Below, piece by piece: positions 1 to 44,293 of a stretch of DNA of 44,343 bases. Source of the stretch: a virus (lineage: Duplodnaviria; Caudoviricetes); the IMG/VR virus record IMGVR_UViG_3300024265_000101, positions 1 through 44,343 of that record; one strand, 5' to 3'. The position numbers and the translations under genes are program-made. Under the pieces are notes generated by a model. The model was not told where the DNA came from. It ran no database searches and saw only the letters and a list, made by a program, of their open reading frames with translations. The number at the start of each line of letters is the position of its first letter. The stretch's first letter is position 1.

Positions 1-126
1 GTACGGAGTGGCCCTCAGAAGCCATCCGCTGTGCGAGGGAGATTCCATCTCCTTGGGAACTTAAGAACAGAATTTTCACTATATTCTACTGAAGCGTATG
101 TATAAGTTCTGCTATTGAAGAACTAT
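1..126. repeat. Terminal overlap copy 1 (circular contig)
   Basis: 1-126 is identical to 44215-44340. Joining the ends places the TerL stop (86-88) 6 nt before the GTG start of the 43211..44293 ORF. Confidence 0.95.
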
Positions 127-1777
127 CATACAAGTCCTCGAAATCTGGTTCAATGGAGGCCGAAGCAGCGTGCGAGGAAATTGGAAATGAACTTTGGCGC
201 TCTCGAAGGGGAGTGAGGATTCCTTCCAAGGAGAAAGGATCATGTTGCTGGGTGAGGCCAGGCGATCCTTTCTTTTCGCCTAAGATCATCGCCGCAGGTC
301 CTCGCACGTGCTCGGCCATTGCAGAAGCGATAACTCTGTCATCGTGGCAACCATCCTGAGCTTCGAGCTTACCACCTTCTTTCTCAACAAACGAGTCCAG
401 TTCGTCTCTCAATAACATCGAATGGATGGTAAAATAACTAGCAAGTGCCATACGAAGGTTACCAATAAGATAAGGTTTGCTCCGAGAAGTAGTACGGAAA
501 CCGAGCTGAGCAAGACGATTAAACTCTTCACCTTTCTTTGCCGTTGTGGAGGATCTATGTATGAGGTATGAGGGATAACTCTCATTGAGCTTGGCCAGAG
601 TAAGAATACCATGATTGTTAGATTCCACTCCAATGTAGGCATTGTTGAACTGCTTCCCGAGCGTCGGAAGGACCTCACTACCGAACTTATCAGGTTCTAC
701 TTTGTTAGAAGCCCACTCAGCAACTTGTTCGCAGGAATCTATATCCATAACACACGCAACGGAATAGTCTGCGTCTCCGCCGAGACCACCAGAAACATCC
801 GCGCCTATTGCATAGCGGTGGCCTATCTTGGGTTCGTCCGCCAGCATCCAGAGAGAGTTGTCTATTCTAGTCCAAGCATCTGTGGGGAGATATCGAACTT
901 TATAGAATATACCAGCACCAGTTCCCTGGAAGCAGTCATCGAGAGTTAGTGGGTATTCTTGTTTGAATAAGCGCAAATCGAACTCTAGTTCCTCCAGCTT
1001 GTCCCGGCGCCAAGCAAGGCGTCCTGCATCGATACCTTCGATTTTAATAAGTTGATCTTCTTCAAGGTCTATATCCAAATGGGCTAGGAATTGTGCTTCT
1101 TCCTTGTTCGTTAGGTCATAGCGATATTCGTCGGTGAACAGCCAACCGAAGAAATGCACTCGATACTTGGAACGGCCTTTAATCGAATTCATCGTGCGCT
1201 GGTGATAGTAATTTCCTTTGCCGTTCCCAGTAGACTCGAGAGCAATCTCTCCTTGACGAGGAACTGCTTGAAGAAGTCCGGCCATGAGATCTCGAGCGTT
1301 TGGCCAGAAGGCAACTTCTGAACAGTGCAGGTGTGTTATAGTATCACCACGCCCAAAGGTCTTTGCACCAGCTGTTCCGATGTAGAACATGCTATTGGTC
1401 TTTGGGAAGGTAATCTCGTTCCGAGACATGTTCTTTATAACCGCGGAAGGTCCGCGGATGTTCTCGAGAAAATACCGCACCCGCATAAGGAGACGTTCGG
1501 TAGCGTTGGATTCATGAGAAATTACTACAGCGCGCACGTTGCGTTGAGCCAAGCAAGCAGCGGTATATCGACCAAGGAAATAGCTCGATACTCCTGGCTG
1601 ACGCATCTTAGGAATAATATCCCGCCCGGTGAGGTTTGCATCCAATGTAGCTTGGACTTCATTCAATGCGAAAGGAACATCCAAACCGGCTTTGTCCGGA
1701 ATAGAGAACATGGATTCAACTATAAGGCGTTCTTTAGTAGGCATGGGGGAAGAATCGTTTGACCAAATGTTGGTCAA
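86..1777 (-). CDS. terL: Terminase large subunit
   Basis: Walker A-like KMRQPGVSS, Walker B GRGDTITHLHCSEVAFW, motif III ESTGNG, and RNase H nuclease motifs IGADVSGG, VESNNHG, HDDRVIA. The start may instead be the ATG at 1744. Confidence 0.95.
   Translation of the reverse strand: MTNIWSNDSSPMPTKERLIVESMFSIPDKAGLDVPFALNEVQATLDANLTGRDIIPKMRQPGVSSYFLGRYTAACLAQRNVRAVVISHESNATERLLMRVRYFLENIRGPSAVIKNMSRNEITFPKTNSMFYIGTAGAKTFGRGDTITHLHCSEVAFWPNARDLMAGLLQAVPRQGEIALESTGNGKGNYYHQRTMNSIKGRSKYRVHFFGWLFTDEYRYDLTNKEEAQFLAHLDIDLEEDQLIKIEGIDAGRLAWRRDKLEELEFDLRLFKQEYPLTLDDCFQGTGAGIFYKVRYLPTDAWTRIDNSLWMLADEPKIGHRYAIGADVSGGLGGDADYSVACVMDIDSCEQVAEWASNKVEPDKFGSEVLPTLGKQFNNAYIGVESNNHGILTLAKLNESYPSYLIHRSSTTAKKGEEFNRLAQLGFRTTSRSKPYLIGNLRMALASYFTIHSMLLRDELDSFVEKEGGKLEAQDGCHDDRVIASAMAEHVRGPAAMILGEKKGSPGLTQQHDPFSLEGILTPLRERQSSFPISSHAASASIEPDFEDLYDSSSIAELIHTLQ
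1759..1777. promoter_or_regulatory. Dispersed palindrome copy 1 (TTGACCAA-ATG-TTGGTCAA)
   Basis: Perfect 8-3-8 inverted repeat at the 5' end of terL. Confidence 0.85.
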
Positions 1778-1786
1778 TAGGATGAA

Positions 1787-1993
1787 TTAGGTATGCCTTC
1801 TGCGGAGGTTGCATTGGAAAGGATACCATTTTGCTGATACTATTACAACTTCTCCGAAATTAAATGCGGCGTAGGTATTTCCCACCATATGTCTCCAGCG
1901 TTCAGGCTTACCAGCAAGAGGAACTATTGTTCGCAAATACGGGCGGCCAGCACCTGAAACAGAAGCGCGCTTTATAGCATTGTCAAGTGCCAT
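1787..1993 (-). CDS. Small adaptor-like protein P3
   Basis: N-terminus MALDNAIKRA..RP..R....WR...GN.Y is paralogous to 3129..3368. TAATG coupling with the upstream gene. Confidence 0.75.
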   Translation of the reverse strand: MALDNAIKRASVSGAGRPYLRTIVPLAGKPERWRHMVGNTYAAFNFGEVVIVSAKWYPFQCNLRRRHT

Positions 1994-3132
1994 TACGGAC
2001 CGGTCTCCATTTCAACTTCGCTGTAATCACTTCCGTCATCTGTGAGTTGTTTCTTTGCAATGACAGTCCCAGCATTGTTGTAGATATTTAAGACGTCTGG
2101 TGCCCCAGAAGTGTTTACGTCCAGACGATTTCGCAGAGCCATATAGAGAAGCATAAGGCCAGTTCTTAATGTGGGGGTTGCTGACGGCGCCGCCTGAGCG
2201 AGTTCAGCGATAGCAGTATCTAGCGCAGCATTCACTTGAGTGAGAACTTCCGCAGGAGTAGCATTCGCAGCTACATCAGTTGGGAGATTCGCAGCATCGA
2301 GTTCAGCAAGCCGAGGTTCTGTGCAGACAGAGGCGAGCGCGGCAGAATCCGTCCCTCGCATATCAGTATTGGTCGTTACAGTATCAACCGCGCCACCAGT
2401 TGTGGCAATACTAGCCTCGGCCATTCTTGCATCAAGGATGTTGTCCAACCGCCCGCCATTAATCCAATCAGTTAGCGTCGCCATTCGTACGGCGGTTATC
2501 TCGTCTTTTATGAGCTTACCAATAGAACTCGCAGTAACGATTGCTGCTAACGCTTGATGCCAGATAGCAAGGATTCCTGGCGTAGAGAGGGAGAATCCTG
2601 CTTTGTCCGTTAGCGCACTATCGGTACCACGCATATCGGTGTTCGTTGTCGTCGTCGCTACGGTTGTAACATTAGCAACAGCATCCGCCACAGGATCGAA
2701 GTAGGAAGCGGCGACAAGAGTCCGAGCGTTGAATTCGGCAACAGTCGGAATATCAAGAGCAAGTGTTCTTAACGCGCCAAGTCCGTCCGTAGCATTTGCT
2801 AGATCCTTCGCAGCGGCGCTTTTGTCTAGAGTAAAATGCGCTACCATTTCGCCAATGACCGAAACGCCGCCAACAGTTCCAGCAGTGAGAATAGCTGAGT
2901 AGCTTTGCCCTGCACCGAAGCCGTTTGCTGCCGTTGCAACAACCTTAAGCATATTAAACCCAGCGATGCTGTCTGGAGTCGATAACGTCTCAGCAACAGT
3001 AATTTGTGTTACTGAATCATCTTCGTATATCTCAACTACACCACCGCTTAATACCGTTGGAACACCATCGGAGAATTGCCTGGTGGTAAACGGGAAGTAT
3101 AAAGTATCTTCCAATTGATAGTCGCCACTCAT
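1993..3132 (-). CDS. Putative virion appendage/fibre protein A2 (paralog of 3368..4228)
   Basis: Ala/Thr-rich. N-terminal beta domain (DY.LE.T....FTTR.F..G.P..LS) and C-terminal domain (VLTQVNAALDTAI..TPTLRTGLMLLYMALRN..LTDDGSDY) are shared with the paralog. TTNTDMRGTDSA occurs twice internally. Confidence 0.7.
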   Translation of the reverse strand: MSGDYQLEDTLYFPFTTRQFSDGVPTVLSGGVVEIYEDDSVTQITVAETLSTPDSIAGFNMLKVVATAANGFGAGQSYSAILTAGTVGGVSVIGEMVAHFTLDKSAAAKDLANATDGLGALRTLALDIPTVAEFNARTLVAASYFDPVADAVANVTTVATTTTNTDMRGTDSALTDKAGFSLSTPGILAIWHQALAAIVTASSIGKLIKDEITAVRMATLTDWINGGRLDNILDARMAEASIATTGGAVDTVTTNTDMRGTDSAALASVCTEPRLAELDAANLPTDVAANATPAEVLTQVNAALDTAIAELAQAAPSATPTLRTGLMLLYMALRNRLDVNTSGAPDVLNIYNNAGTVIAKKQLTDDGSDYSEVEMETGP

Positions 3133-3368
3133 CCGGCGAGTCCTCCACCAGTACCAGCCAAGCCTCCAAGTCCAACAAGACCGCCAGCATTGACAAGACT
3201 ACTCATAATCCGACCAGTAACGGCAGGAGCGAGGGCATTACCTCCGTATGCGTTACCACTGGAGATACGCCATTCTTCATCTGAGGCCGCCCTAGGAAAC
3301 TTATCGCGCATCCAAGGTCTAGCAACACCAAGGACGGCAGCACGTTTCTCTTTATTATCAATAGCCAT
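3129..3368 (-). CDS. Small adaptor-like protein P2
   Basis: N-module resembles P3; C-module RIMSSL...GGLVG.GG.AG..GGLAG resembles P1. Translationally coupled on both sides. Confidence 0.8.
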   Translation of the reverse strand: MAIDNKEKRAAVLGVARPWMRDKFPRAASDEEWRISSGNAYGGNALAPAVTGRIMSSLVNAGGLVGLGGLAGTGGGLAG

Positions 3369-4228
3369 TAAGCCATCTCTGCTTCAGTGTAATCCGATCC
3401 GTCGTCTGTTAGGAGCTTGGCAGCAATTTTTGTTCCGGCATCATTATGGATTTCGAGAGCGTCCGTCCCTGAGGTTTGTACAATCGTCTTATTCCGAAGC
3501 GCCATGTAGAGCAGCATCAACCCTGTGCGCAAGGTCGGAGTTGCCGTTGGTGCTGCGACGCCGAGTTCTGAAATGGCAGTATCTAGCGCCGCGTTCACTT
3601 GCGTGAGAACATCAGAAGTTGCAATGTCATTCAACGCGGCAATCAAGCCCGGAACGTCATCTACTTGCAACTCGTTCGTATCTGCTACGATAAGCGCGGT
3701 CTCAGCCTTTACCGCATCAATCAGCGTTTTGAGTGCTCCTAATCCGTCTGTGGCATTGGATAGATCAGTATTAACTGTGTCGATTAAAGTCTTGAGTGCG
3801 CCGAGACCGTCCGTACCATTGGACAAATCTGTGTTAACTGTGTCAATAAGAGTTTTCAACGCTCCCAGACCGTCAGTGGCGTTAGCCAAATCGACTGCGG
3901 CTGTGGAACGTCCAATAGAGAAACTACCGACAACCTCCCCTACGACTGAAACGCTATCTACGGTGCCTGCTTCGATTACTACGTGGTAGCTAGCTCCTGC
4001 ATTGAATCCATTACCAGTCGTCGCAACAATAGGTACCATGTTAAGTCCGACAATGCTGTTGAGGTCTTCCGTTACAGCAACCGCGGTCATGATTGGAGTC
4101 GCAGTGCCATCCTCGTAAACAGCAACAGTCGCCGCAGACAACGTACCGGGGATGCCTGTAGCGAACGCACGAGTAGTAAAGAGTAAGTGAACTGTCTCTT
4201 CTAATGGATAATCAATTCCTGAACTCAT
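3368..4228 (-). CDS. Putative virion appendage/fibre protein A1 with 21-aa coiled-coil repeats
   Basis: Paralog of 1993..3132. Central DL.N.TDGLGALKTLIDTVNT repeated three times. Confidence 0.7.
   Translation of the reverse strand: MSSGIDYPLEETVHLLFTTRAFATGIPGTLSAATVAVYEDGTATPIMTAVAVTEDLNSIVGLNMVPIVATTGNGFNAGASYHVVIEAGTVDSVSVVGEVVGSFSIGRSTAAVDLANATDGLGALKTLIDTVNTDLSNGTDGLGALKTLIDTVNTDLSNATDGLGALKTLIDAVKAETALIVADTNELQVDDVPGLIAALNDIATSDVLTQVNAALDTAISELGVAAPTATPTLRTGLMLLYMALRNKTIVQTSGTDALEIHNDAGTKIAAKLLTDDGSDYTEAEMA
3716..3892 (-). repeat. Coding 63-bp tandem repeat (about 3 units, synonymously diverged)
   Basis: Encodes DLANATDGLGALKTLIDTVNT / DLSNGTDGLGALKTLIDTVNT / DLSNATDGLGALKTLID. Confidence 0.85.
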
Positions 4229-4431
4229 CCCGCTAATCCTCCAGAGACACCAGCTATTCCACCTTTACCAACCAGTCCGCCATGTCTTGCTAGACTTGAC
4301 ATGACACGGCCACCAGCAGGAGCTGCCCCTACAGGCTCTACAGCGCCCTTCCATCGCTCAAAGGCATTACCTGAAGGACTCGTCTCGGCCGGCTCGACAG
4401 CGCCCTTCCAGCGTTTATAGGTATTTGCCAT
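4225..4431 (-). CDS. Small adaptor-like protein P1
   Basis: RWKGAVEP twice, then a Gly-rich C-module RVMSSL..GGLVGKGGIAGVSGGLAG shared with P2. Confidence 0.8.
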   Translation of the reverse strand: MANTYKRWKGAVEPAETSPSGNAFERWKGAVEPVGAAPAGGRVMSSLARHGGLVGKGGIAGVSGGLAG

Positions 4432-5717
4432 TATTGCCCCATGCCGAATTCACTCGGGAGTGAGCCTTCTTTGACATTCCCGCCTGCAACTGGATTAAAA
4501 TCACCGTTGGCAGCGTCGGTGAAAGCACTCGCTGAAAGAACTTCGTTGTCGCTCAAACCGAAGATTGTCTTGTCTTGGGGGTTGTCATAGTTTGTTGCGT
4601 TGTTAAATGCGGCGTTGCCGTCAAACCAAGTTAATCTCCCCCCTGTTACACCGAAATTAAACCCTTCTCCTCCTGTACCGCTAAACCCCTCTACAATATT
4701 GTTTGCGACTGTAATGCCAGTTCGCTCTCCGGTGACTTGAATTCCTTGTCCTGTTCCGGCGTTCGACCAGACAGAGTTGTTAACGCAACAGGCACCATCC
4801 AGCAAAGAGATTCCATCACTGGCACCGTCGATCTTAATAATGTTATTCGCAATAAACATGGGTACTGTGGATACACCCACAATAGCTGCAATGAAATCAT
4901 TCACTCCATTCTCAAAGAAATTATGGCGAATTGATCCACTATTACATTGGACGCCTACGCTTCCACAATTATGTATATAGCTATTATTAAGGATAAAATT
5001 GCTATCAGCATCGATTCCTAGGCTCGTCGTATTGTCTAGTTCGCAATTAATAACTGCGCAATGATTATCAAATCCAAAGATTCTGTTGGAGCCTGTGTTG
5101 TGACAATGTAAGTCGATAAACGAAACGTAATCGAATGTGGCGTCGTTATAGACTGAAACCGAACCGCCGCCAGAAAGTCCACCGATACCGCCATCATCTA
5201 TCTTCGTGGTATATCCACGAAAGACACAAGGCGCGGCTTCAGTCGGTGCCCACGCAGCAGTCGTGCCAGTGTTTGCCATTGCAACAGACAGCTCCGCCGC
5301 CAGCACTTCATCCGTACCGGCTTTGATGTTGACCTGCGTGCCATTGGTTGTGTCAAAGGTCGTCTGCTCTACAGCATACTCAACGTCACCGAAAGGCGAT
5401 CCAGAATCTACATCTGACGTTGAGTCTGCGGTCAAGCCCGCATCTGCTGCAAGCAGAATGGCATCATCATCTACTCTACTAGCAACCTCATAGAGTCCAT
5501 CAGCAACACCACCGACAGCGTTTTGTAGGAAAAAGAGATCGCCCGCAGTGAATGTGTAGCTGGCGAATGCAGCAGTTAACGAAAGATGACGTTCGCCCTC
5601 ACCATTTCCGGTATGGTCATAACTCGCATTAACGAAAGTTATATTGAGCGGCTGATTCCCTTCGCCACTATCCGCCGCGATAGCCGGATCGACATAGATG
5701 TGACTGAACGCGCCCAT
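4431..5717 (-). CDS. Right-handed parallel beta-helix protein (tailspike/depolymerase-like receptor-binding protein)
   Basis: N-terminal IYVDP motif, repeated Asn-ladder strands (INCELDN, LNNSYIHN, IANNII, VNNSVWSN, VANNIVEG), C-terminal FTDAANGDF. Confidence 0.75.
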   Translation of the reverse strand: MGAFSHIYVDPAIAADSGEGNQPLNITFVNASYDHTGNGEGERHLSLTAAFASYTFTAGDLFFLQNAVGGVADGLYEVASRVDDDAILLAADAGLTADSTSDVDSGSPFGDVEYAVEQTTFDTTNGTQVNIKAGTDEVLAAELSVAMANTGTTAAWAPTEAAPCVFRGYTTKIDDGGIGGLSGGGSVSVYNDATFDYVSFIDLHCHNTGSNRIFGFDNHCAVINCELDNTTSLGIDADSNFILNNSYIHNCGSVGVQCNSGSIRHNFFENGVNDFIAAIVGVSTVPMFIANNIIKIDGASDGISLLDGACCVNNSVWSNAGTGQGIQVTGERTGITVANNIVEGFSGTGGEGFNFGVTGGRLTWFDGNAAFNNATNYDNPQDKTIFGLSDNEVLSASAFTDAANGDFNPVAGGNVKEGSLPSEFGMGQ

Positions 5718-5723
5718 GAGTGT

Positions 5724-6059
5724 CTAGATGATATTGCCTGGACCGGCCAGCTTGACATACAATTCGCGTGCGCTGTCTGTGTTGTACGTCGCAAGCAAAT
5801 TGACAAGTTGTGTTGCGACGAGCGTTGTCAGTTCTTCTTTCGTCACGTTGGCGGCCCCGGCAAGCCCTGAGAGATTTGGGATTATCTCGCCTACATCAAG
5901 AGACGCGACAATCGCCGAGACCTGAGCATTCCAGTCATCCACCAATACAGTTGCCTTCGTGTTCGTTTTTGCAAACTCGCCAGCAAAAGCGCGAAGTTGA
6001 GTCGTCAAAGCGCCGAGAATGTCTTTCTGCTCTGCGGTTAATGAAGCATAGGTTGCCAT
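5724..6059 (-). CDS. Hypothetical alpha-helical protein (possible chaperone/partner of the beta-helix protein)
   Basis: AAGGA RBS, tight packing in the operon. Confidence 0.65.
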   Translation of the reverse strand: MATYASLTAEQKDILGALTTQLRAFAGEFAKTNTKATVLVDDWNAQVSAIVASLDVGEIIPNLSGLAGAANVTKEELTTLVATQLVNLLATYNTDSARELYVKLAGPGNII

Positions 6060-8341: not shown

Positions 8342-8812
8342 CTACGCTACTACGTCTCGGAACTTCGATCGGGTATCTTCGAGTAGCGTTTGTGCATTCG
8401 AGATTCTTTGATGGAGACTCGCAAGGAGGTCATCACATTCCAAGCGTTTGCGATTGAAATCGTCTTCGAACTCTTCCACCTTAGTGGAATATTCCTTTCG
8501 GGCGTTCTCCACAGCTTTGTGAGCAGCATCTTCTTGCTGTTGGTATTTTGCAGAAAGGACTTCGTATTCTAATTTGAGCGTAGCAGAAGACTTCGCGTAT
8601 TGCTGTTTCTCTTCTACCAACGAAGTAGAAACCGCAGAGACTTCCTCAGCAAGAACCTTATGTTTTTGTTCTAGTTCCTTGCAAGCGAGGTTAAGTTCAG
8701 ATTGGTGTTGTTCTGCAGCAAGCGCAGTTTTGAGAACTTCCTCCAAGTACTCGGCAGAACGATACGTTCGGAGGACTTTCTGCAGTTCATTTAGAGCTTG
8801 TGAAGTTTCCAT
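8342..8812 (-). CDS. Coiled-coil hypothetical protein
   Basis: Continuous heptad pattern; TAATG coupling. Confidence 0.7.
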   Translation of the reverse strand: METSQALNELQKVLRTYRSAEYLEEVLKTALAAEQHQSELNLACKELEQKHKVLAEEVSAVSTSLVEEKQQYAKSSATLKLEYEVLSAKYQQQEDAAHKAVENARKEYSTKVEEFEDDFNRKRLECDDLLASLHQRISNAQTLLEDTRSKFRDVVA

Positions 8813-9165
8813 TACGTAGTCCTCTTTACGACTAATACGACAGCAAGAGCCGTAGCACCATCACCGGCCGTTACAGCAGGACGAATAAATTTAGGATTTT
8901 CTCTAACCATAGAAAGGATAGTATCGGCAGTCAATGCTATGACCGAACCGTCAGCATCATTAAGAGCGCCGAAGGCAACATTGTTGTTGCTCCCTTGCAT
9001 TGCAACACTACCACCTACACCGAAATTACCGTCGGCTTGAACTGTTTTGTCCGCAGATGCAGGCATTACAAGGGGAGTACCAGTATCCCCATTAGCCATA
9101 GCAGCCCAGGTATATACCGTGACGCCTGCGCCGAGAGTTTCGCTAGTCGGGACGATTATCGCCAT
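8812..9165 (-). CDS. Small all-beta virion protein (head decoration/spike-base-like)
   Basis: TVQ.DG.FG.GGSV..QGSN...IRP pattern; AAGGAG RBS. Confidence 0.55.
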   Translation of the reverse strand: MAIIVPTSETLGAGVTVYTWAAMANGDTGTPLVMPASADKTVQADGNFGVGGSVAMQGSNNNVAFGALNDADGSVIALTADTILSMVRENPKFIRPAVTAGDGATALAVVLVVKRTT

Positions 9166-23456: not shown

Positions 23457-23866
23457 TGCCTTCCGACGATCCTAAGGAAGTAATCACCGCAACAGGGAAG
23501 CTAATATTTCTAGCATCACCATATTCTCATTATGATTCCGTTGTTAGATATGAACGCTATGCTGAGGTGAAAGCTTTTCTCACTCGAGCCTTGCTTAAGA
23601 AGAAAAACATCTATTCTCCTATCGTGTATACTCATCCAGTTCATTTGCTCGGCGCCGGATCTACAACATTCGAGTTCTGGAGTGATTTCAATCGAGCAAT
23701 GCTTACTCGAAGTTCTGAAATGTGGATTTTAACTATAGGAGGTTGGGAAGAATCTAAGGGAATAGCTTACGAGATTGAAGTAGCTATAGATTATCACGTA
23801 CCTATTTTCCTAGTAAACCCACAGAGTCATGCCCTTTCTCAGTATACCCACAACCGCAAGGTTTGA
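23456..23866 (+). CDS. DUF1937 / nucleoside 2-deoxyribosyltransferase-like protein
   Basis: IFLASPYSH, YSPI..TH, W...N..ML, GWEESKG..YEI. Confidence 0.8.
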   Translation: MPSDDPKEVITATGKLIFLASPYSHYDSVVRYERYAEVKAFLTRALLKKKNIYSPIVYTHPVHLLGAGSTTFEFWSDFNRAMLTRSSEMWILTIGGWEESKGIAYEIEVAIDYHVPIFLVNPQSHALSQYTHNRKV

Positions 23867-24884
23867 AGTAGGTCCTGCTGGGCCTATAGATGCTAAGATT
23901 GCTATCATCGGGGAAGCTCCTGGCCGTGAGGAAGCTCGCACAGGAAAGCCTTTCGTTGGTCAAGCTGGAAGGGTGCTTGAGGAGATTTGCCACGACGCTG
24001 GACTAATCAAAGGCCAGTTGTATCTTACAAACGTAATCAAAGAAAAACCTCCAGATACTTACAAGAAGAAAAACGACATTTCCTCGTATTTCAACGAACG
24101 CACTGGAAGGTTCACCGAAAAGGGACAGCCTTGGGTAGATCTCCTGCGTGAGGAACTTCAAGGAATCGGTGCAAATATTCTAGTTCCTATGGGCAAGTCT
24201 GCGACCGCAGCTATTATCGGTCCGCCCGCTCATAAGATAATGACCTACCGAGGATATATTTATGAAGCTTCCGGCCCCGCAATACCGGAAGGAACGTCCC
24301 GCAAAGCTCTACCAACCATACACCCGGCAGAAACTCTCTACGCTCCTGCGAATTACATCCACCGGTATTATATCTCGCATGATCTTCACAAAGCGCGGCT
24401 ACATTCGGAAACAGCTGAGGTGGTTTGGGACCCCGTTGAGGCGATTGTTCCTGAAACTTTGGGATCTGCAATAGAGTGGCTCAAGTACTTTAATGAAATT
24501 CCTGAAGTTTCTGTTGACACAGAGAGTATGAACTATGAAATTACCTGCATTTCTTTCACCGACCAAATCGATTCCGCTGTGGCTATTGATTTCTTTAATA
24601 AGAAATGGACAGAAGATGAGGAAGTCATCTTATGGAGTTACATCGCAAAGATTATTGAGAACCCCAAGGTAGGATTGATTGGGCAGAATCTGATTCACGA
24701 TTTAGAACTGCTTGCCCTTAACATGGGGATTGTATACGACGGGTATATAAAAGACACGATGATAATGTCGAGTTTGATGTATCCCGACTTTTCCAAAGGA
24801 TTAGGTTTTCTTGGAGGAGTCTATACGAACATGCCCTACTGGAAAGATATAGTTAAGTTTAATACGAGTAAGGAGGAGGCGTAA
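23829..24884 (+). CDS. polA: DNA polymerase A N-terminal subunit: family-4 uracil-DNA glycosylase plus partial 3'-5' exonuclease (ExoI, ExoII)
   Basis: UDG motifs GEAPG..E..TG.PFVG.AG, TNVIK, HPA; ExoI VDTE; ExoII QN..HD; DTM; ends just after YT..PYWKD. Confidence 0.88.
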   Translation: MPFLSIPTTARFEVGPAGPIDAKIAIIGEAPGREEARTGKPFVGQAGRVLEEICHDAGLIKGQLYLTNVIKEKPPDTYKKKNDISSYFNERTGRFTEKGQPWVDLLREELQGIGANILVPMGKSATAAIIGPPAHKIMTYRGYIYEASGPAIPEGTSRKALPTIHPAETLYAPANYIHRYYISHDLHKARLHSETAEVVWDPVEAIVPETLGSAIEWLKYFNEIPEVSVDTESMNYEITCISFTDQIDSAVAIDFFNKKWTEDEEVILWSYIAKIIENPKVGLIGQNLIHDLELLALNMGIVYDGYIKDTMIMSSLMYPDFSKGLGFLGGVYTNMPYWKDIVKFNTSKEEA

Positions 24885-25123
24885 TGTTAATTAGAGTATT
24901 TGAGATTCCTCCCGAAGACGGACAATTCTGCTTTGGAGGCAAGATTGTTTCTTGGAGACAGGTGGATTGGTTTAGGGATGACGGACCACCAGACGGGCCA
25001 GAGAAGCATACCAAAAATCAAATTCAAGACTATATTCAAGAGAAAAACTATTACTCTCCTGATATACCGTTATTAGTGTTGACGGAAGATTACACGTTTA
25101 CCCTCAATTACTCCGCTCCTTAG
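24884..25123 (+). CDS. Hypothetical protein inserted in the split polA
   Basis: AGGAGG RBS, TAATG coupling. Confidence 0.65.
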   Translation: MLIRVFEIPPEDGQFCFGGKIVSWRQVDWFRDDGPPDGPEKHTKNQIQDYIQEKNYYSPDIPLLVLTEDYTFTLNYSAP

Positions 25124-25131
25124 GAGGCTCT

Positions 25132-26277
25132 ATGGAACACCCACTTTCGCTCACACCCACACAAGACGCCGCGCTACAATCTATTCGTTCCTGGTACAAG
25201 CAATGCCACGAGGAGAAGAGAAATGCCCACAAGCTTAATAAGCCTTTCTTCTATCTCGCAGGATATGCCGGTACCGGCAAAACTACTCTTGTGGGAATAT
25301 TTCGAGACTACATATCTGGGAAAGTTTGCTACGCTGCCTATACTGGCAAAGCTGCAATGCAGATGCGTAAGCAAGGAGTTGCTGCCCAAACCGTTCACTC
25401 ACTATGCTACATTCCTCAGGTCGATAAGGAAGGGAAAACCACATTCGCGTTGAACCCAGATTGTGAGCTGTCCTACGCTAAGCTTCTAGTCCTCGACGAG
25501 TGTTCGATGGTTGGCAAGGAGATGGGAGCAGACCTGTTATCATTCGAGACTCCTATTCTTGTACTCGGAGACCCGGGGCAACTTCCACCGATTAAGGGCA
25601 CCGCCTTCTTTACCGGCAAAACTCCTGATATCATGCTGGAGGAAGTACACCGGCAAGCTTTGGATTCGCCCATACTACGAGTAGCTACAGAAGTGCGGCA
25701 GGGAAAGACTCTCAAACGTACAGACGAGGAAGGCTTGCTAGTCTATCCTATGCTTGGTGATGGAGACAAGGAAGATATTCTCCTAAACTGCGAACAAGCT
25801 ATTACAGGGACAAACAAAGTACGCAATCGTGGAAACAAGATTGTTCGAGAACATTACGACTGTCCAGGACCATTTCCTATTACGAACGAACGCCTTGTGT
25901 GTTTGCGAAACAATAGAAGGTTCGGGCTATTCAACGGATTGATTGTGCAAACTCTTAGCGATGCCAAGGAAAATGGCGAAGAGATCAAATTGAATATTCG
26001 TACAGAGTTAGGGACGGAACTAAAAAGCATTCGTATTCTAAAAGAATGTTTCTCGAATTACAAGGCAGTTCAAGAACTTCCATACAACCAGCGAGCATTG
26101 TATGATGAGTTCGACTATGGATACGTCCTTACCGTGCATAAATCTCAAGGGAGCCAATGGGACGACGTGCTATTGTTGGACGACGGATTTTTGCGATGGG
26201 ATAGAGGACAGAGGAAACGCTGGTTGTATACTGCAATTACTAGAGCAGCAGAGAAGCTCACGATAATTAGAGCATAG
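25132..26277 (+). CDS. Dda/RecD-like superfamily 1B DNA helicase
   Basis: GYAGTGKT, DECSM, GDPGQLPPI, HRQ, TVHKSQG, LYTAITRA. Confidence 0.92.
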   Translation: MEHPLSLTPTQDAALQSIRSWYKQCHEEKRNAHKLNKPFFYLAGYAGTGKTTLVGIFRDYISGKVCYAAYTGKAAMQMRKQGVAAQTVHSLCYIPQVDKEGKTTFALNPDCELSYAKLLVLDECSMVGKEMGADLLSFETPILVLGDPGQLPPIKGTAFFTGKTPDIMLEEVHRQALDSPILRVATEVRQGKTLKRTDEEGLLVYPMLGDGDKEDILLNCEQAITGTNKVRNRGNKIVREHYDCPGPFPITNERLVCLRNNRRFGLFNGLIVQTLSDAKENGEEIKLNIRTELGTELKSIRILKECFSNYKAVQELPYNQRALYDEFDYGYVLTVHKSQGSQWDDVLLLDDGFLRWDRGQRKRWLYTAITRAAEKLTIIRA

Positions 26278-26290
26278 GAGCATCCCCACA

Positions 26291-27892
26291 ATGCCTGCGC
26301 CTGACCTCACCCGTCTTGCTGAATACAACTGTATGGACTCAGCCGGAACGAAGCAAATCTCAGATATTCTCTGGGAAGAACTTAACTCTACCGGCTATCG
26401 AGATCTATACAATTTCTACGTCGAACTTCACAAGCCCTTGATGTATATGATGACTCGAGGGATTCTCGTAAACCAGGATGACCTCAAGGACGTACTAGTA
26501 GAAGTCACATCTCAACGGGATGCTGCGCAGGAGAAGCTCGATGCTATGTGCGGGCATGAGCTGAACGTGGACTCACCGAAGCAGTGCATTCAGTACTTCT
26601 ACCTCGAGAAAGGAATCACCCCCTACCTTAATCCTAAAACCAAAGCTCCTACATGTGATGACATCGCATTGCAACGCCTAGCTAAGGGTACTGTTGCTCG
26701 GAAGCCTATTCCCGAAGCCAGACTAGTACAAGAAATTCGTGGCCTAGGAAAACTCAAATCCACCTACTTGGAAATTGAGTTTGACAAAGATTCCAGAATG
26801 CGATGTTCTATCAAACCGCGGGGTACTAGATTCTCTCGACTCTCCACAGGTAAGACTGCCTGGGGAACTGGAATGAACATGCAGAATCTTCCTGCGCAGT
26901 TCAAGAAATTTCTCCTCGCCGATCCAGGATTCCTATTCATGGAATTCGACAAGAGACAAGCCGAATGGGTAGCGGCTGCCTACTTATTCAACGATGCGAA
27001 TATGATTCAAGCGGTGGAGAGTGGAAAAGATATTCACGTCCACACAGCTTCGATGATATTCAACTGCGAACCCCAACTTATTCAAGCAGATGACGAACTT
27101 ATCGGACATATGACAAATCCTTTTGAGATTGAGGAACTTCGGAAGCATCATCTTCCAGAAGTATTGGCCCTTCCTTATTTCATTCGCAATATGTCTTTGA
27201 GACAGTGCGGAAAGAAATCCAACCATGGACTTGACTATGATGAAAGATTCAGAACATTTGCACTCATCAACGATATGCTGGAGCGGGACGCTAAACGAGT
27301 TATCGAAGGATATCACTCGATATACCCGGGCATACGCCAAGCTTACGAAGGAATTAAGCATAAGCTCAGTAAGGATAGAACTCTCATCAATCCATTTGGA
27401 AGGAAGTACCGATTTCTTGGGAAGTGGGGGCACGATCTTTTCAAACAAGCTTACTCTTACCTTCCTCAAGCCACCGTCGGAGACATCCTCAATGGCTTCG
27501 GCTACTCAGGAGGAATCCTTGGAATCTATAAGAAACAAAAGCTTCGAGAATATTCCTGTCTAAAGAAACTCGAACAACTAATTCAAGTACACGATTCTGT
27601 ACTCACTCAATATCCTATCGCCGACTTAGATGATATGGCCGAAGCTTGTATCGTCGTCGCCCAGAACTTAAAACCAACTATGGAATATGAAGGGCGGTCT
27701 TTCCAAATCGAAACTGACTTAAAAATCGGAAACAACTGGGGAGATATGTTCAAGGTTCCCCTTAGTGAGAATAAAGAAACTATGCGACGAAATTTGGAGA
27801 AAGTAATCTATGACAACGAGCTCGGATCGCGAGCTGGAGGACTGGATAAAAGCGTATCTGAAATTCGCGGAGAACTCGGAACCACCCATTAG
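26291..27892 (+). CDS. polA: DNA polymerase A C-terminal subunit (ExoIII plus polymerase domain)
   Basis: ExoIII YNCMD at the N-terminus; N.DSPKQ, RLS, NMQNLP, motif A D..QAE, DIH, motif B R..GKKSNHGLDY, GR, PQ, motif C QVHDS. Confidence 0.92.
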   Translation: MPAPDLTRLAEYNCMDSAGTKQISDILWEELNSTGYRDLYNFYVELHKPLMYMMTRGILVNQDDLKDVLVEVTSQRDAAQEKLDAMCGHELNVDSPKQCIQYFYLEKGITPYLNPKTKAPTCDDIALQRLAKGTVARKPIPEARLVQEIRGLGKLKSTYLEIEFDKDSRMRCSIKPRGTRFSRLSTGKTAWGTGMNMQNLPAQFKKFLLADPGFLFMEFDKRQAEWVAAAYLFNDANMIQAVESGKDIHVHTASMIFNCEPQLIQADDELIGHMTNPFEIEELRKHHLPEVLALPYFIRNMSLRQCGKKSNHGLDYDERFRTFALINDMLERDAKRVIEGYHSIYPGIRQAYEGIKHKLSKDRTLINPFGRKYRFLGKWGHDLFKQAYSYLPQATVGDILNGFGYSGGILGIYKKQKLREYSCLKKLEQLIQVHDSVLTQYPIADLDDMAEACIVVAQNLKPTMEYEGRSFQIETDLKIGNNWGDMFKVPLSENKETMRRNLEKVIYDNELGSRAGGLDKSVSEIRGELGTTH

Positions 27893-32678: not shown

Positions 32679-33881
32679 CTACGCCGCTTCCATCAGAGCA
32701 TCGATTTTTCTTGCTAATGCTTTATTCGACGCTAAAGTAATACCCATTACATCGGCTAAATGGATAGTCTTGCCATCGCCGACTTTGAAGGTTTCCTGGA
32801 AATCTTCTGCCATTGGCCCCATATGAGTAGTTGTATCTCCCTTGTATCTCCAAGTGTGCAGATCTATATCTTCCAGTGCTTGAAGAATTTCGTCATCGCT
32901 TAGAGGAACAATATCTTCCTTGAGTTCTCGTGAGGAGAAAATACCTCCAATAGCTCCGCCTATTGCACTACCGCCACCACCGCCAATAAGCCCTCCAAGT
33001 AAACCTTCCTGCCCCCCAAGGCCGATGCCGATGTTCTCCACTCCCTGTACATTCAAAGCGCCTAGGATCTGTTCGATACGAAGAGCTTTTTCCTGCTGTA
33101 CTCGTAAGAATTCTGTATACTCTGCAGTAAGCCCAGCTTGTTCGATTTGCTGAGGAATCTGTCCAGCTTCTAGCAACTTAATAGCTTGGTCGATAGGAGC
33201 CCCAGTAACGGTGTCTACCAGCCCCAAAGCCTGTAAGGTGCGGTTCTGGGCAGATTCTTGAGTAGCAAATGCAAATTCAGATGCTTGTGCAGTCAAAGAA
33301 TCTAACAAATCCTCAGTAGCAAGCTCCTCTTGCGTGAGCCGACCCGAGGAGAAAAAGTTCTTTGCATTCTTTGCTCCAATACTTGGAAGGATTTGCTCAT
33401 TAAAAGTAGCGAGGGCCGGATCTACTACAGACGATTGAAAGAAATCTTGGAAATCCGTAGGATTAGGATTAAGCAAACCCTCCAACGCTTGAATAGCAAG
33501 TTGTTGAGTAGGCGTACTTCCAGAAGCTAGTGCTAAAGCATTCTGTTCTAACCCTTCAAGAGAAGTCTGTTGAAGATTGCTTAGTCCAGCAGTAAGCTCT
33601 CCGCCAAAACCTTCCGGGTTTCCCGAACTAAAAAGAAGATTTAGAACACTAGATAATCCCGTCTGCTGCTCAGGAGTTAATGTAGTAAGACTTTTGAACT
33701 CAGCACTCGGAGCAGTCCCAAAGATCAAATCATTAAGTGCCTGATCATCAACTAAACCAAGGAAATCAACAGGATCAGCGTTGTTAGCAAGAGGAAAAGT
33801 ATTCTTCCCACCAACAGTAGAAGACGGTTGACTCAAAGGTGCCGGTTTGGTAGTTGTTAGATTGTTAAAATCCAAGGGCAT
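32679..33881 (-). CDS. Ejection/pilot-like protein with a C-terminal peptidase S74 chaperone domain
   Basis: Q/S/T-rich helical body and Gly zipper, then SSRELKEDI...WRYK...GPMAED...coiled coil. Confidence 0.75.
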   Translation of the reverse strand: MPLDFNNLTTTKPAPLSQPSSTVGGKNTFPLANNADPVDFLGLVDDQALNDLIFGTAPSAEFKSLTTLTPEQQTGLSSVLNLLFSSGNPEGFGGELTAGLSNLQQTSLEGLEQNALALASGSTPTQQLAIQALEGLLNPNPTDFQDFFQSSVVDPALATFNEQILPSIGAKNAKNFFSSGRLTQEELATEDLLDSLTAQASEFAFATQESAQNRTLQALGLVDTVTGAPIDQAIKLLEAGQIPQQIEQAGLTAEYTEFLRVQQEKALRIEQILGALNVQGVENIGIGLGGQEGLLGGLIGGGGGSAIGGAIGGIFSSRELKEDIVPLSDDEILQALEDIDLHTWRYKGDTTTHMGPMAEDFQETFKVGDGKTIHLADVMGITLASNKALARKIDALMEAA

Positions 33882-33902: not shown

Positions 33903-35684
33903 CTATCTACTTTCGCCTTCAATTATGAAAGTAAAGCCAAACCAATCTATTGCAAAGCCGCTACCAGATCCCGAGAGTCTCCACGTAACTTGCCTTGAAA
34001 CAAATTGCTTGTATACCTCATACTTTGTTAACGCTCCAGTGAGAGTTATCGTAGCATAGTTCTTCCAGCTCCCGCCTTTGTCTGTACTATACTCAATGGT
34101 TAGGACACCCCCTTTGGCAAAAATAGAAAACGAATCCATGCGAATTTCTAATTCAGAAATCATGAAGTTTTTGCTTACCCAATTCCAAGGAATAGCCGCG
34201 CCGTCGTCTGTGGTAGAGAAGAAATCATATTCAAATACTTGTAATGCAACGTCTCCTCCAAGAAGCATGGTCGGAGCAGATGCTTGTACGATACTACTTC
34301 CCCAAGTAAACGACTGTGCTGTCCAATCACCTTCGAGCTCACTCCAGGCTTTGGAGATAGTCTCCTCAAATATCCCCCAACCAGAAAGTTCTATACTAAA
34401 ATCTCGAATAGACCACCGATTCTTATTAAGATCTAGCCTCGCAACTTTCGTAGGAAACTCATCATTTGTATTAGGCCAGAAGATAAAAATCTCTCGCAAA
34501 CCTCGTAGATGAATCCCAAATACGCGCTGAAAGAATCCAGGAGAAACCTCTGAACCTACTCCGAATAGTTTATCAAAGAGTTCTCCTGAGATACTATCAG
34601 CATCGAAGCCTCCGAAATATTCATAGATGTCAGATTCGTCCATACAGATGTGACGAGTTCCTATAGGAATTACAGCATCATGAGAAACTATACCTTTCTC
34701 TGTTACCATAGTATTCCAGTCAACAAGGTCTGTATCGTCGCCTGTCCACTCCCCTCGACGAATCGAATTCGCACGGTAAGCAATCAAAAAAGGTCCGAGG
34801 ATTATTAAACGCTTTATATCATCCTCTTCATCAAAGAAATCTGAAAACCCCGCAATGCCCGCATTCCAAATCTCAAAGCCTCCTACGTCCGAGTTTCGTA
34901 CACGTTGAGGTTTATTCGTAGCACTCTCTACAACAAAACCCAAGAACAAGGTGTTGTTAAAAATAGCAAGGGTTCTGCAAGTATCTACATTGACTGTAGA
35001 TAGCCCTCCGAGGGCTGTAACAGTTCCTCCTGCGGCAGGGTCGTACTTTTGAACTACGTCAACGCCATTAGTAAAGATTACCCAATCGTTAGAAGGGTCA
35101 GTAACAATACTAATTTGTCGGTCATCAATTCCGACATATACAGCAGCTTTTAAGACCACTGCACCGCTATCTGCTTGTCTCCCGGCGGGGATGCCATCGT
35201 CTATAGTAATGTCATTGAGCCCGCCATCGATAGAAGCAATCGTAGTCCTGTGCTGAGAACCATCATCTAAGGCGATACCAATCCGATCTGTCGCAGAGAA
35301 ACCTGTAACATCTACAACAGAGATAACCGTTTCCGCTGCGGGTTCAATAGCATCTGTGGTGGTGTCGGTTCCATTAGAAATGTACTGCCAAGCAGAAGCT
35401 ATCCGCCTATAAAAGGTAGCATTTGTTATTAGAAGATATTCTACAGTCTGGCTAGCAAGTACAAACCGGTAGACTCGTCTAGGCGCTCCAACCACCACGC
35501 CTTGAAATTTATCATACCCGGTGTCTGAACGAATCTGCCCCTGACGGAAGAATACGTTTAGAAGATCACTTGCCTTGGAATCATCTAAATCATCTGGATC
35601 ATCTGAAACGTCCAAACCAGCGTCTAAACGGTTAACAAACCGAGAAGTAACGCCATCAGGAAGTTGGATATCTTGTCCAGGCAT
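33903..35684 (-). CDS. Tail nozzle / head-stabilisation protein (P22 gp10 / T7 gp12-like beta-propeller)
   Basis: GL..SDDP..L......LLNV N-terminus, FTNG, R.R.S...W blades; size and position fit. Confidence 0.75.
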   Translation of the reverse strand: MPGQDIQLPDGVTSRFVNRLDAGLDVSDDPDDLDDSKASDLLNVFFRQGQIRSDTGYDKFQGVVVGAPRRVYRFVLASQTVEYLLITNATFYRRIASAWQYISNGTDTTTDAIEPAAETVISVVDVTGFSATDRIGIALDDGSQHRTTIASIDGGLNDITIDDGIPAGRQADSGAVVLKAAVYVGIDDRQISIVTDPSNDWVIFTNGVDVVQKYDPAAGGTVTALGGLSTVNVDTCRTLAIFNNTLFLGFVVESATNKPQRVRNSDVGGFEIWNAGIAGFSDFFDEEDDIKRLIILGPFLIAYRANSIRRGEWTGDDTDLVDWNTMVTEKGIVSHDAVIPIGTRHICMDESDIYEYFGGFDADSISGELFDKLFGVGSEVSPGFFQRVFGIHLRGLREIFIFWPNTNDEFPTKVARLDLNKNRWSIRDFSIELSGWGIFEETISKAWSELEGDWTAQSFTWGSSIVQASAPTMLLGGDVALQVFEYDFFSTTDDGAAIPWNWVSKNFMISELEIRMDSFSIFAKGGVLTIEYSTDKGGSWKNYATITLTGALTKYEVYKQFVSRQVTWRLSGSGSGFAIDWFGFTFIIEGESR

Positions 35685-37017: not shown

Positions 37018-37716
37018 TTAGTGAACTCCTCGCACAAAGGGATCTAACCAATAGTCTCCTATTGATACTCCTGCTTCAAATACGGGTACTATATCTCTAC
37101 CAGGTTTTATCTTCTCTTCCTCTTTTGCTCGAGCAAGAAGAGCACCAAAGACTTGATACTTCTTTACAGCCTTATCTAGCATTCCAAGAGAATCCATTAG
37201 ATCTGCTGTTGCAAGGACTATTAGCAAATCATCCTTTTCTTCTAACTCCGTAGTCTGGGCAAGCGTAGTTAGTGGTATGGGCCAAGAGCCGCGCTTGATA
37301 TTGATCTTGTATTCTATATCTGGAACTGGCCAAAAAGCCCAGAATTTTCCCCAATTATTGAAGAAGTTTGGAGAACTCTTTGTTAGCGTCGCAGTAGAAT
37401 CATGAATTCTTGGAAAGCGTTTGTCGAATTCTGTAGGAGTTAGCCAATGCAACCTAGTTGTACTATCGCCATCTTTGAGAACCATACTCAACTGGTAACG
37501 GAAATTCGCAGGATAAGCTAAGCTAGTAGCGTCTGCGGGGAGAGTTAATTCTGCATCAGGAGTTTCAAGTTCTTCCCAGAGGCTCTCTCGAGTGATTTTC
37601 ACCTGAGCGATATTTAGCCAACGTTCAATACGAGAGCCAGCGACAACGGTTAAATCATCACGAGTTGCGAGCGCCGCATGGACTTCGTCTTGAAGGATTT
37701 GATTCGTAAAGGACAT
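37018..37716 (-). CDS. Head-tail adaptor (tail tubular protein A-like)
   Basis: WLN.AQ, YP..F, FWPVPD..Y motifs; located between capsid and nozzle genes. Confidence 0.75.
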   Translation of the reverse strand: MSFTNQILQDEVHAALATRDDLTVVAGSRIERWLNIAQVKITRESLWEELETPDAELTLPADATSLAYPANFRYQLSMVLKDGDSTTRLHWLTPTEFDKRFPRIHDSTATLTKSSPNFFNNWGKFWAFWPVPDIEYKINIKRGSWPIPLTTLAQTTELEEKDDLLIVLATADLMDSLGMLDKAVKKYQVFGALLARAKEEEKIKPGRDIVPVFEAGVSIGDYWLDPFVRGVH

Positions 37717-43210: not shown

Positions 43211-44293
43211 TCAACTCAAATATCCATATTCTTGCAGTTTCTTGAGCCTCTCTCCCGAGGCCTTACCAATATCCGTCCGGTATTGTTTATCCTCCAGGGG
43301 AATCCCACGCACGGTGCGGAGAACTCTCGCTTGTACCTCGTCGATGCTCCTTCCTACTGCTGTCGCGCTGCATACTACCCCCGTGAGCCCAGCGATACGA
43401 AACAACTTACCTTCGCAATAAGCATCTTGGAAGTGCAGATGTTTGAGGGCTTGATCTGAAAGCTCACCAATGCCCATACCGCGGATTTCTCCATTAGGCT
43501 GTGCATGAGGCCAGGGGGGCACAGAAATCCTAGCTGAAAGCATGTAATCAAAAGTAGTGATGTGCAGAGACTTTTTAAGTCCAATAGCGGTTTCGAATAT
43601 AGCATCTCCCAACGGCTCCTGCAGGCCCTCTATGAGAGCAAAAGTGCTGTCATATTGGAAGCCTAACAATAGACTATCTACTGAAGTACCTTTCAACCAT
43701 ACTCGGCATCGGACATTCACCGGTCCGCGCCAAGATATTTTCTTGAGGAATTTCTCAAGTGGGAACAGTACATTCTCAAAAAGTGGATAATCTTTCTTTG
43801 CCGCCCAGGTGAGACAACCCATCGAAGGAACTATGGGACCTACATCGCCATTCATGAAGTGATCTTCATTCATGGATACAAGAAAGGGGCGTACCCAAGA
43901 ACGACCATTATACCATGCTTGGACGATGCAAGGAACGGCGTCTTGTGGAATTTCTTCCCCGGGAACTTTCATTGAGAGGAGCGAGAGTATTCTTGATTGT
44001 CTACTTGGAGATAAAGCCATATCTGCTAGACGATTGCAAGCAAACACCGGACGTCCATTTCCACGTAGAACTTTGGCATAATTCCCGAATCCCGGGCTAT
44101 CACAAACTACCAGGTCGGAATCCATGAGATTAGGCCGCCACGTTTGAACGCGGTTCACAAAGCCTGTTCCAAGCACGTCTGCTCCAGAACCGCCGTGGCC
44201 TCGAACGAACACGTGTACGGAGTGGCCCTCAGAAGCCATCCGCTGTGCGAGGGAGATTCCATCTCCTTGGGAACTTAAGAACAGAATTTTCAC
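43211..44293 (-). CDS. Degenerate PurD (GARS)-like ATP-grasp protein
   Basis: Pre-ATP-grasp N-terminus KILFLS..G..LA, MNGDVGPIVPSMG (cf. GD.GPNTGGMG), PPWP, and C-terminal YRTDIG. Confidence 0.7.
   Translation of the reverse strand: MKILFLSSQGDGISLAQRMASEGHSVHVFVRGHGGSGADVLGTGFVNRVQTWRPNLMDSDLVVCDSPGFGNYAKVLRGNGRPVFACNRLADMALSPSRQSRILSLLSMKVPGEEIPQDAVPCIVQAWYNGRSWVRPFLVSMNEDHFMNGDVGPIVPSMGCLTWAAKKDYPLFENVLFPLEKFLKKISWRGPVNVRCRVWLKGTSVDSLLLGFQYDSTFALIEGLQEPLGDAIFETAIGLKKSLHITTFDYMLSARISVPPWPHAQPNGEIRGMGIGELSDQALKHLHFQDAYCEGKLFRIAGLTGVVCSATAVGRSIDEVQARVLRTVRGIPLEDKQYRTDIGKASGERLKKLQEYGYLS

Follow-up and report, generated by a model that had tools for sequence, protein, structure and literature searches.

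The window, that is the whole 44,343-nucleotide stretch of tailed-phage DNA analysed here, contains a cassette of six open reading frames (ORFs), all on the minus strand. Their order and lengths are as originally noted, and terL is the next gene after P3. The genes and their parts, in cassette order, are:

5724..6059, minus strand: 111-aa gene, directly upstream of the beta-helix gene
4431..5717, minus strand: right-handed beta-helix cargo protein, 428 aa; stops short of the closing D-K-G-A-[IV]-Q strand present in its homologues
4225..4431, minus strand: P1, 68 aa; residues 1-36 at 4324-4431; Gly-rich tail (residues 39-68) at 4228-4317
3368..4228, minus strand: A1, 286 aa; predicted Ig-like N-domain (residues 1-107) at 3908-4228; C-domain (residues 205-286) at 3371-3616
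3129..3368, minus strand: P2, 79 aa; MAID head (residues 1-47) at 3228-3368; Gly-rich tail (residues 49-79) at 3132-3224
1993..3132, minus strand: A2, 379 aa; predicted Ig-like N-domain (residues 1-104) at 2821-3132; C-domain (from residue 294) at 1996-2253
1787..1993, minus strand: P3, 68 aa; MAID-type head (residues 1-45) plus a basic tail belonging to a recurring class
86..1744, minus strand: terL, terminase large subunit (PHROG 2, E 7e-17); context, marking the cassette end

The junctions read TAATG, ATGA, TAATG, ATGA, and TAATG in cassette order. The strict alternation of the two that had been pointed out is present, but it adds little because both are the commonest overlaps in phages, accounting for 248 and 233 of 1,473 other junctions. 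A second contig (L026) carries A2 (5'-truncated), P3, and terL again. Homologues of the 111-aa gene also lie upstream of the beta-helix gene in L095 (E 1e-14) and L058 (E 2e-9), and its product is likely a further component of the distal end. A1, A2, and P1-P3 have no Pfam match, and their PHROG matches are weak and unrelated.

A1 and A2 share their ends and differ in the middle, as had been noted, with 46% identity between the N-domains and 74% between the C-domains. Between its end domains, A1 has a helical stalk with three 21-residue repeats, and the A2 stalk is different. The AlphaFold2 model of A1 (mean pLDDT 91) places the N-domain strands in residues 2-105. By folding, the paralogous A1 and A2 are predicted to be Ig-capped helical rods, with an N-domain that would be an Ig-like beta-sandwich of the BppU-N/LtfC/Gp77 kind, a helical middle, and a C-domain predicted to form a helix and a four-stranded meander. 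BppU N-terminal and LtfC domains are fold neighbours of the N-domain in the viral library and in the Atlas, where the clusters are 94-100% viral and the matches fall below the bar for naming. The N-domain aligns with 8jou_D over 88 residues (Z 6.5, rmsd 3.5 Å), a Z within the generic Ig range, and VIA ranks generic Ig domains highest (Z 8.1, rmsd 3.3, 93 aligned). No Pfam family, BppU_N and LtfC included, matches A1 or A2 at E 0.05, and PDB sequence searches gave nothing useful. The C-domain, modelled as an 88-residue monomer of a probable oligomer, has no Foldseek match at E 0.001 and a best VIA match of Z 3.5 (rmsd 2.6, 39 aligned); the absence of a clear match is not evidence of a new fold.

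A1 has 1,230 homologues. Its N-domain is 86% identical to that of L166 compared with 46% to that of A2. A recent tandem duplication of an A+P unit is rejected because A1 and A2 are each closer to outside relatives than to each other. The proposal that chain length changes by such duplication is better replaced by one in which junction units are captured and recombined out of a common pool.

The two modules ascribed to the small peptides are borne out. The P2 and P3 heads score 100 against each other and the P1 and P2 tails 103, each reached by 0 of 2,000 shuffles. The four comparisons between non-cognate modules score no better than chance, their values being equalled by 226-787 of 2,000 shuffles. 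Among the 143 homologues of P2, the head is constant and the tails are swapped. The head module occurs in 6,218 clusters at 50% identity and matches no Pfam or NCBIfam family and no PDB sequence. Of the best 150 matches among these clusters, 69 contain it 2-4 times as an internal repeat; it also follows a cargo domain in P0241 and is joined to an Ig domain in L183. The P3 tail had been considered unique; a basic RR tail in fact ends 10 of 68 short MAID-type peptides, including those of L166, L167, and L026 (the last being the same P3). The Gly tail is carried by 65 unrelated body families (118 bodies), and 82 of 124 carriers are longer than 100 aa. By these counts, Gly tails are usually part of large cargo proteins, and the system is wider than first described.

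P1 residues 1-36 contain RWKGAVEP twice, which had been likened to a beta-helix closing strand. Four homologues support this by carrying strand and tail inside a single beta-helix ORF. The beta-helix protein has a Pfam Beta_helix match under the cut-off (E 0.006), Atlas support (features 0.97; TM 0.60-0.65 to beta-helix clusters), and homologues in L058, L059, L062, and L095 (E 1e-45 to 1e-52). NCBIfam returned no meaningful match for the cassette, so the label 'choice-of-anchor Q / D.GA.E' is unconfirmed and the argument for P1 rests on direct homologues. Judged by these, the strand of P1 belongs to the C-end of the beta-helix, from which it has been split off. L250-L252 have the same beta-helix/P1-type split with another tail attached.

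Pairing of the modules was compared in 248 related loci, mostly phage contigs, which with the window make 249 sequence sets. A Gly-rich tail is followed by an A-type Ig-like N-domain at 83 of 86 junctions. After an A C-domain, a MAID..KR head comes next in 70 of 111 cases when scored by a narrow HMM and in 94 of 111 when a looser motif is allowed, against a background of 24 of 3,288. Within three genes, all 88 of 88 GGLAG modules have an A-type N-domain downstream and all 105 of 105 MAID modules have an A-type C-domain upstream, as the original prediction required, with profiles built partly from such pairs. Broader profiles place a head adjacent to 97 of 112 C-domains and up to three genes away from 6 more, leaving 9 with no recognisable head within four genes. 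Fourteen of the 138 N-domains lack a scored tail, most of them having variant Gly tails. Since these modules served as queries to collect the loci and the profiles came from adjacent pairs, the counts are partly circular, and near-identical strains were counted separately. The rules are kept in 26 of 29 and 7 of 7 loci fetched via the protein's other end, and the pairs persist despite inserted HNH or membrane genes (L137, L178, L038, L190, L209, and L085).

Further classes of tail/N-domain and C-domain/head pairs recur. The class of the partner is predicted from the peptide in 131 of 171 cases (shuffled mean 74, maximum 89) and 128 of 151 (mean 70, maximum 87), and small socket classes are poorly predicted (0/7, 0/4, and 2/13). 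Across 22 genes, partners in different genes correlate at 0.39 and 0.42 and the two ends of one A ORF at -0.03; the cross-gene correlations are also expected from distance alone because neighbouring DNA is coinherited. No ORF in the 249 sequence sets joins an N-domain to a tail or a head to a C-domain, and the C-domain is absent from all of the best 150 head matches. Such separation of cognate modules is as expected for a finite chain. At the level of sequence, then, the end motifs stay paired with their neighbouring domains in more than 100 related phage sequences.

Among 32 Ig-sized candidates picked by hand in relatives, 4 are Gp77 fibre-tail adaptors (PF23148, over the cut-off) encoded directly behind the last peptide, and the chain of L095 ends directly before a head-tail connector-like gene, named from sequence and context with no family match. 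Among the window proteins scanned, none matches Gp77 (PF23148) or BppU_N, and terL comes after P3. Elsewhere the window encodes portal and capsid proteins, an SU10-type adaptor (37018-37716), and a nozzle-like protein (33903-35684). A tblastn search of 50,697 phage records found no relative of A1 or P2 in a cultured phage, all support coming from uncultured sequences. A GTDB scan found five loci in 185,579 genomes; four are MAG contigs, which do not fix the host, and the match in L249 spans 34 residues of a protein that looks unrelated.

Comparative genomics, from which both binding and virion location are inferred, makes it probable that the cassette carries a docking code for assembling a segmented appendage of the virion. 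Because the motifs are paired across related phages, the peptides likely clip the proteins together head to tail. P1 would complete the beta-helix through strand donation and insert its tail into the Ig socket of A1. A1, probably an oligomeric coiled coil, would hold the P2 head at its C-end; the P2 tail would enter the socket of A2, which would bind the P3 head, and the basic tail of P3 may attach the chain to the particle. The rods would point N-terminus outward, and the tip would be formed by glycan-binding-like cargo. Judging from the tandem heads, each rod may offer more than one head site, making several linkers per joint or branching possible. Recombination within genes may exchange stalks and cargo as junction pairs remain together, in which case gene order would mirror assembly order. 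A complex prediction that combined the P2 head with three A1 C-domain copies returned scores of 0.30, 0.66, and 0.39; replaced-partner controls scored 0.02 and 0.02 but a replaced-A-domain control 0.29, and the prediction counts neither for nor against binding.

Other readings of the same pairing assign the modules different roles. Recombination inside genes could merely keep junctions together, the modules functioning separately without binding one another. The junction behaves as an inherited unit, as DNA distance alone predicts, and the overlap types are conserved with it (-1 in 56 of 111, -4 in 94 of 152). Linkage nevertheless leaves unexplained why 26 tail residues are kept at the protein level on so many unrelated bodies, why the C-domain lies upstream of the head in every one of the 105 cases, and why there are tandem internal heads and a beta-helix/P1 fusion, and it is considered unlikely. 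A role of the motifs as translation signals, either a Gly-codon ribosome-binding site or coupling element or a frameshift site giving a polyprotein, is very improbable. GGA is preferred at tail positions -5, -4, and -1, a Shine-Dalgarno-like word is found at 107 of 134 N-domain starts versus 1,058 of 2,278 other starts, and both overlap types put the next ORF in the -1 frame. However, the strong GGA bias is limited to the Shine-Dalgarno and stop positions of the tail. The rest of the Gly tail is conserved as amino acids with every synonymous codon in use, spacing varies (-4, -1, 0, +1, +2, +3, and more), whole genes may intervene, and heads are repeated within ORFs. The ribosome-binding or frameshift reading is therefore rejected save for two or three codons.

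Binding may also serve a purpose other than a serial chain. Small genes behind fibre genes often encode assembly helpers, and lambda Tfa and T4 gp38 act as assembly chaperones or caps. The peptides could likewise bind their domains as chaperones or caps, with A1, A2, and the beta-helix protein attaching to the virion separately, which would suit the two head-bearing peptides that follow one A gene in some loci (L035-L051) and the fact that no virion anchor was found in the window. This is improbable, given that a chaperone has no need of a second module matched to the next gene, that the tail usually belongs to a large cargo protein, and that P1-P3 match no Pfam chaperone family. A real chain that assembles off the virion, on the host surface or inside the cell, or pairs that dock on a hub and not serially, would fit the position of the cassette between lysis-like genes and terL, away from the capsid and tail genes, and the absence of an identified partner for P3. 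Against these options, which have a low probability, the chain in relatives ends at Gp77/BppU-like adaptors, in one case right before the connector-like gene, and the A proteins open directly with the Ig domain and have no evident signal peptide.

A serial virion appendage remains the preferred reading, and a broader version of it is put forward tentatively, at somewhat less than even probability. Environmental tailed phages may share a combinatorial kit in which at least 10 mutually exclusive peptide-domain pairs address the joints, gene order spells linear or branched assembly, and the BppU-N/Gp77-like Ig domain would serve as a peptide socket in general, with different tails recognised by its subfamilies. 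If the docking reading holds, a function would be assigned to a very large set of phage genes that lack annotation, appendage architecture would be readable from gene junctions, the shuffling of fibre modules without loss of assembly would be explained, and the pairs would be natural orthogonal peptide-domain pairs.

Peptide docking between phage fibre parts is already known from single pairs. The literature holds analogues but no account of these module families, with most subscription papers and supplements outside the coverage. In the Klebsiella podophages KP32 and K11, a short terminal peptide of a receptor-binding protein (RBP) docks on a domain of the neighbouring gene product, and engineering showed the arrangement to be modular (PMC13352976). 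At the genomic level, the cassette likewise pairs a short peptide of one part with a domain of the neighbouring product. However, the Klebsiella system, as described there, is a single pair in which RBP2 itself contributes the peptide, as its N-terminus, and RBP1 has an N-terminal anchor, without a free two-module adaptor or alternative classes. Searches of Pfam, PHROG, and the 50,697 phage records (tblastn of A1 and P2) found no homology to the RBP1 anchor or branching domain or to RBP2.

T-even gp38 is a separate small protein, encoded by the next gene, whose N-terminus caps the C-end of gp37 and whose distal part is rich in Gly (PMC6851490); P2 would take a similar place behind A1. According to that source, gp38 folds into a terminal adhesin that includes a three-Trp helix bundle and a polyglycine sandwich, whereas the Gly tail of P2 tracks the Ig domain of the next gene. 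With 79 aa and about three Gly motifs, P2 lacks the three-helix Trp domain, beta-helix, and ten-motif polyglycine sandwich, and it has no Pfam or PDB sequence match. The cyanophage A-1(L) neck fibre, gp82-gp81(x14)-gp80, is a self-assembling head-to-tail trimer chain from adjacent genes with cargo at its tip (PMC10966104), an architecture similar to that proposed for the cassette. Its globular beads are joined directly via N-terminal hairpins and one subunit polymerises, whereas rods alternate with separate peptides in the cassette; a self-polymerising subunit with both cognate ends is absent from the 249 sequence sets.

The predicted N-domain of the A proteins resembles the BppU N-terminal and LtfC Ig-like domains (PF10651, PF23926) in being a beta-sandwich of about 100 residues. 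Known members of these families, among them mycobacteriophage BppU (PMC13252515), are located on the baseplate or collar, whereas the A N-domain is proposed to lie at the outer end of the rod. In fibre I of Ralstonia phage GP4 (with fibre-tail adaptor gp77, PDB 8JOU, PF23148) and the chain-like fibre of phage A1002, segments of a peptide 'rope' attach to beta-sandwich proteins through sheet augmentation (PMC13730344). Gp77-family genes end some related cassettes, and the A N-domain aligns with 8jou_D at a Z in the generic Ig range. One long rope carries dimers in GP4 and A1002, whereas in the cassette short bifunctional peptides of 68-79 aa would join rods in series, A1 being predicted to combine an Ig domain with a long helical stalk.

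The 44.3 kb phage genome is circularly complete, the first bases of the window being seen again from position 44214. Its gene content is typical of a short-tailed phage, with genes for terminase, portal, major capsid protein, an SU10-type adaptor, and ejection proteins. The cassette is encoded on the minus strand, flanked by lysis-like genes and terL. The order and lengths of its genes, their overlaps, and the two shared modules, namely the MAID..KR head that starts P2 and P3 and the Gly-rich tail that ends P1 and P2, are all as first described. The claimed kinship of the modules also held up, with cognate scores far above shuffles (0/2,000) and non-cognate modules not above them. At cut-off, none of the six cassette genes receives a Pfam or NCBIfam assignment, and A1 and P2 have no tblastn match among 50,697 GenBank phage records. 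Other genes of the window include the following:

43211-44293, minus strand: 360-aa PurD/GARS-like ATP-grasp gene, after terL, across the circle join and before the portal gene; L026, a second contig with A2 (5'-truncated), P3, and terL, has the same order for this gene, terL, and portal
32679-33881, minus strand: Peptidase_S74 chaperone domain ending a virion/ejection-type protein (PHROG 8003, 4287)
23829-27892, plus strand: apparently split DNA polymerase; one gene combines UDG-like and 3'-5' exonuclease parts, the other is PolA, and a Dda-like helicase gene separates them
8812-9165, minus strand: 117-aa gene without a Pfam match; homologous genes lie close to related cassettes in L148 and L167; possibly a further fibre/decoration subunit

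Related loci were fetched by three baits: the head, the C-domain that ends A1 and A2, and the Ig-like N-domain that starts them. Three of the fetches covered the best 80 of 105, the best 80 of 158, and the best 80 of 313. With the window's own contig (L165) left out and genes called by a simple script, 248 loci and the window gave 3,399 unique junctions. The gene after a terminal Gly tail has an A N-domain at 83/86 junctions, and the gene after a C-domain has a head at 70/111 (narrow profile) or 94/111 (looser motif), against 24/3,288 elsewhere. Broader profiles with a slack of at most three genes give 88/88 for tail to downstream N-domain, 124/138 for N-domain to upstream tail, 103/112 for C-domain to head, and 105/105 for head to upstream C-domain, counts that flatter the pairing rule because adjacent pairs were used to build the profiles and each near-identical strain was counted on its own. 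The rule holds in 26/29 and 7/7 of the loci fetched by the opposite end of the protein, and pairs are kept despite intervening HNH (L137, L178) or membrane-protein genes (L038, L190, L209). The HNH-like genes, named from sequence (L137:9618-10010 and L178:5603-5995), are similar 130-aa genes of two different phages, inserted exactly between the Gly-tail gene and its N-domain gene.

Clustering of gene starts and ends yields further recurring pairs. Tails of the types PKGP..GPFGGP, HHYR.RH, and GNPW..YAQQ lie upstream of other N-domain classes, and the C-ends TLDD..PTS.TR, TAP..GDTF, DGNR..V, and DPWGP each precede their own heads. When classes were assigned by the leave-one-out nearest peptide, restricted to neighbours with a partner domain <60% identical, the partner class was recovered in 131 of 171 cases (mean 74 and maximum 89 after shuffling) and in 128/151 (mean 70 and maximum 87); several small classes were poorly recovered (0/7, 0/4, 2/13, 2/8). 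Across 22 A genes with both ends, the C-domain correlates with the next head (rho 0.39) and the upstream tail with the N-domain (0.42), whereas the N- and C-terminal ends within one ORF show no such relation (rho -0.03); the inherited unit is the junction, not the gene, though closeness on the DNA would yield this pattern as well.

A1 homologues number 1,230 among 7,991 scored candidates and P2 homologues 143 among 154; P2 relatives keep the head constant and swap the tail, and a head profile search returned 6,218 clusters at 50% identity. Of the 120 best A matches, 72 have both end domains, 31 the N-domain only, 14 the C-domain only, and 3 neither. Each end domain is thus exchanged independently of the other. 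Of 113 loci of at least 12 kb, duplicates included, 93 have one A-type gene, 18 two, and 2 none. Recent duplication was considered as the source of A1 and A2, but each is nearer to foreign genes than A1 is to A2, and the two-unit chain therefore stems from capture or old divergence.

The tail could be kept as protein or as a DNA signal. A strong GGA bias at tail positions -5, -4, and -1 coincides with the Shine-Dalgarno site and ATGA overlap. Yet in 31 long tails, picked by first and last motif, unselected Gly/Leu positions are conserved in 30-31/31 with all synonymous codons in use. The tail is borne by 118 bodies in 65 single-linkage families, and 82/124 carriers exceed 100 aa. Of the 150 best head matches, in a ranking that favours repeats, 69 carry 2-4 copies of the head in tandem; the head is also found behind a cargo domain (P0241) and joined to an Ig domain (L183). 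Such conservation, body range, repeats, and fusions characterise peptide ligands rather than translation signals. In L035, L036, L039-L042, L044, L048, L050, and L051, one A gene is followed by two consecutive head peptides with different tails, suggesting that a rod offers several head sites or that the chain branches.

At the cargo end, four beta-helix homologues (E 1e-45 to 1e-52) align with the window protein as far as its last residues and, within the same ORF, go on with D-K-G-A-[IV]-Q and a tail; the repeated W-K-G-A-V-E of P1 aligns with this strand. In L095, a fused beta-helix with Gly tail precedes an A N-domain, equivalent to the window's beta-helix and P1 as one gene, and L250-L252 (one phage type) are likewise split but bear another tail. 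A second P1-like class of short peptides has a repeated IP..G motif (L001:3966-4148, L013:1283-1474, L170:5094-5282); these come after cargo proteins whose ends are Y.[DN]..(I/P) strands, and they carry swappable tails behind the IP..G part.

The A1 model (mean pLDDT 91, pTM 0.55) comprises a beta-sandwich (2-105), helices (109-216), and a helix with four strands (233-282). Its N-domain has an Ig-like fold, and viral models of the BppU-N and LtfC types are among its neighbours; against the GP4 fibre-tail adaptor chain 8jou_D it scores Z 6.5, a generic level. From its repeats, we infer that A1 may be an oligomeric coiled coil. In many relatives, the tail of the last peptide is made of two or three short repeats, and the next gene encodes a protein of 90-137 aa. 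Among 32 such chain-end candidates, selected by eye out of 87, four score above the Gp77 cut-off and one below it, and one lies just below that of BppU_N. These matches link the kit with virion fibre adaptors already known and make it likely that cargo faces outward and C-ends face the particle. In the window, terL comes after P3, and the basic tail of P3 is of a class that recurs (10/68 short head peptides). Another end class, DDE..L.LL (acidic then hydrophobic), often behind Arg-rich stretches, forms C-ends of peptides or cargo (L004, L007, L013, L044, L178) and is a candidate virion anchor.

The proposal that each module docks on its neighbour stands in its genomic predictions, borne out by the tail/N-domain and C-domain/head neighbour counts; its physical part we only infer. 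The cassette probably forms a docking chain on the virion. Free two-module adaptors from several exclusive pair classes were not found in the literature searched. Known analogues come from several phages: a branching domain and its conserved peptide in Klebsiella phages (PMC13352976), the neck fibre of A-1(L) (PMC10966104), the rope fibres of GP4 and A1002 (PMC13730344), and the T-even pair gp37-gp38 (PMC6851490). In phage 7-7-1, linker proteins stabilise the capsid, and one with an Ig domain is a suggested fibre anchor (PMC12796354). The cassette belongs to none of these systems by sequence; its likeness to them lies in how they work.
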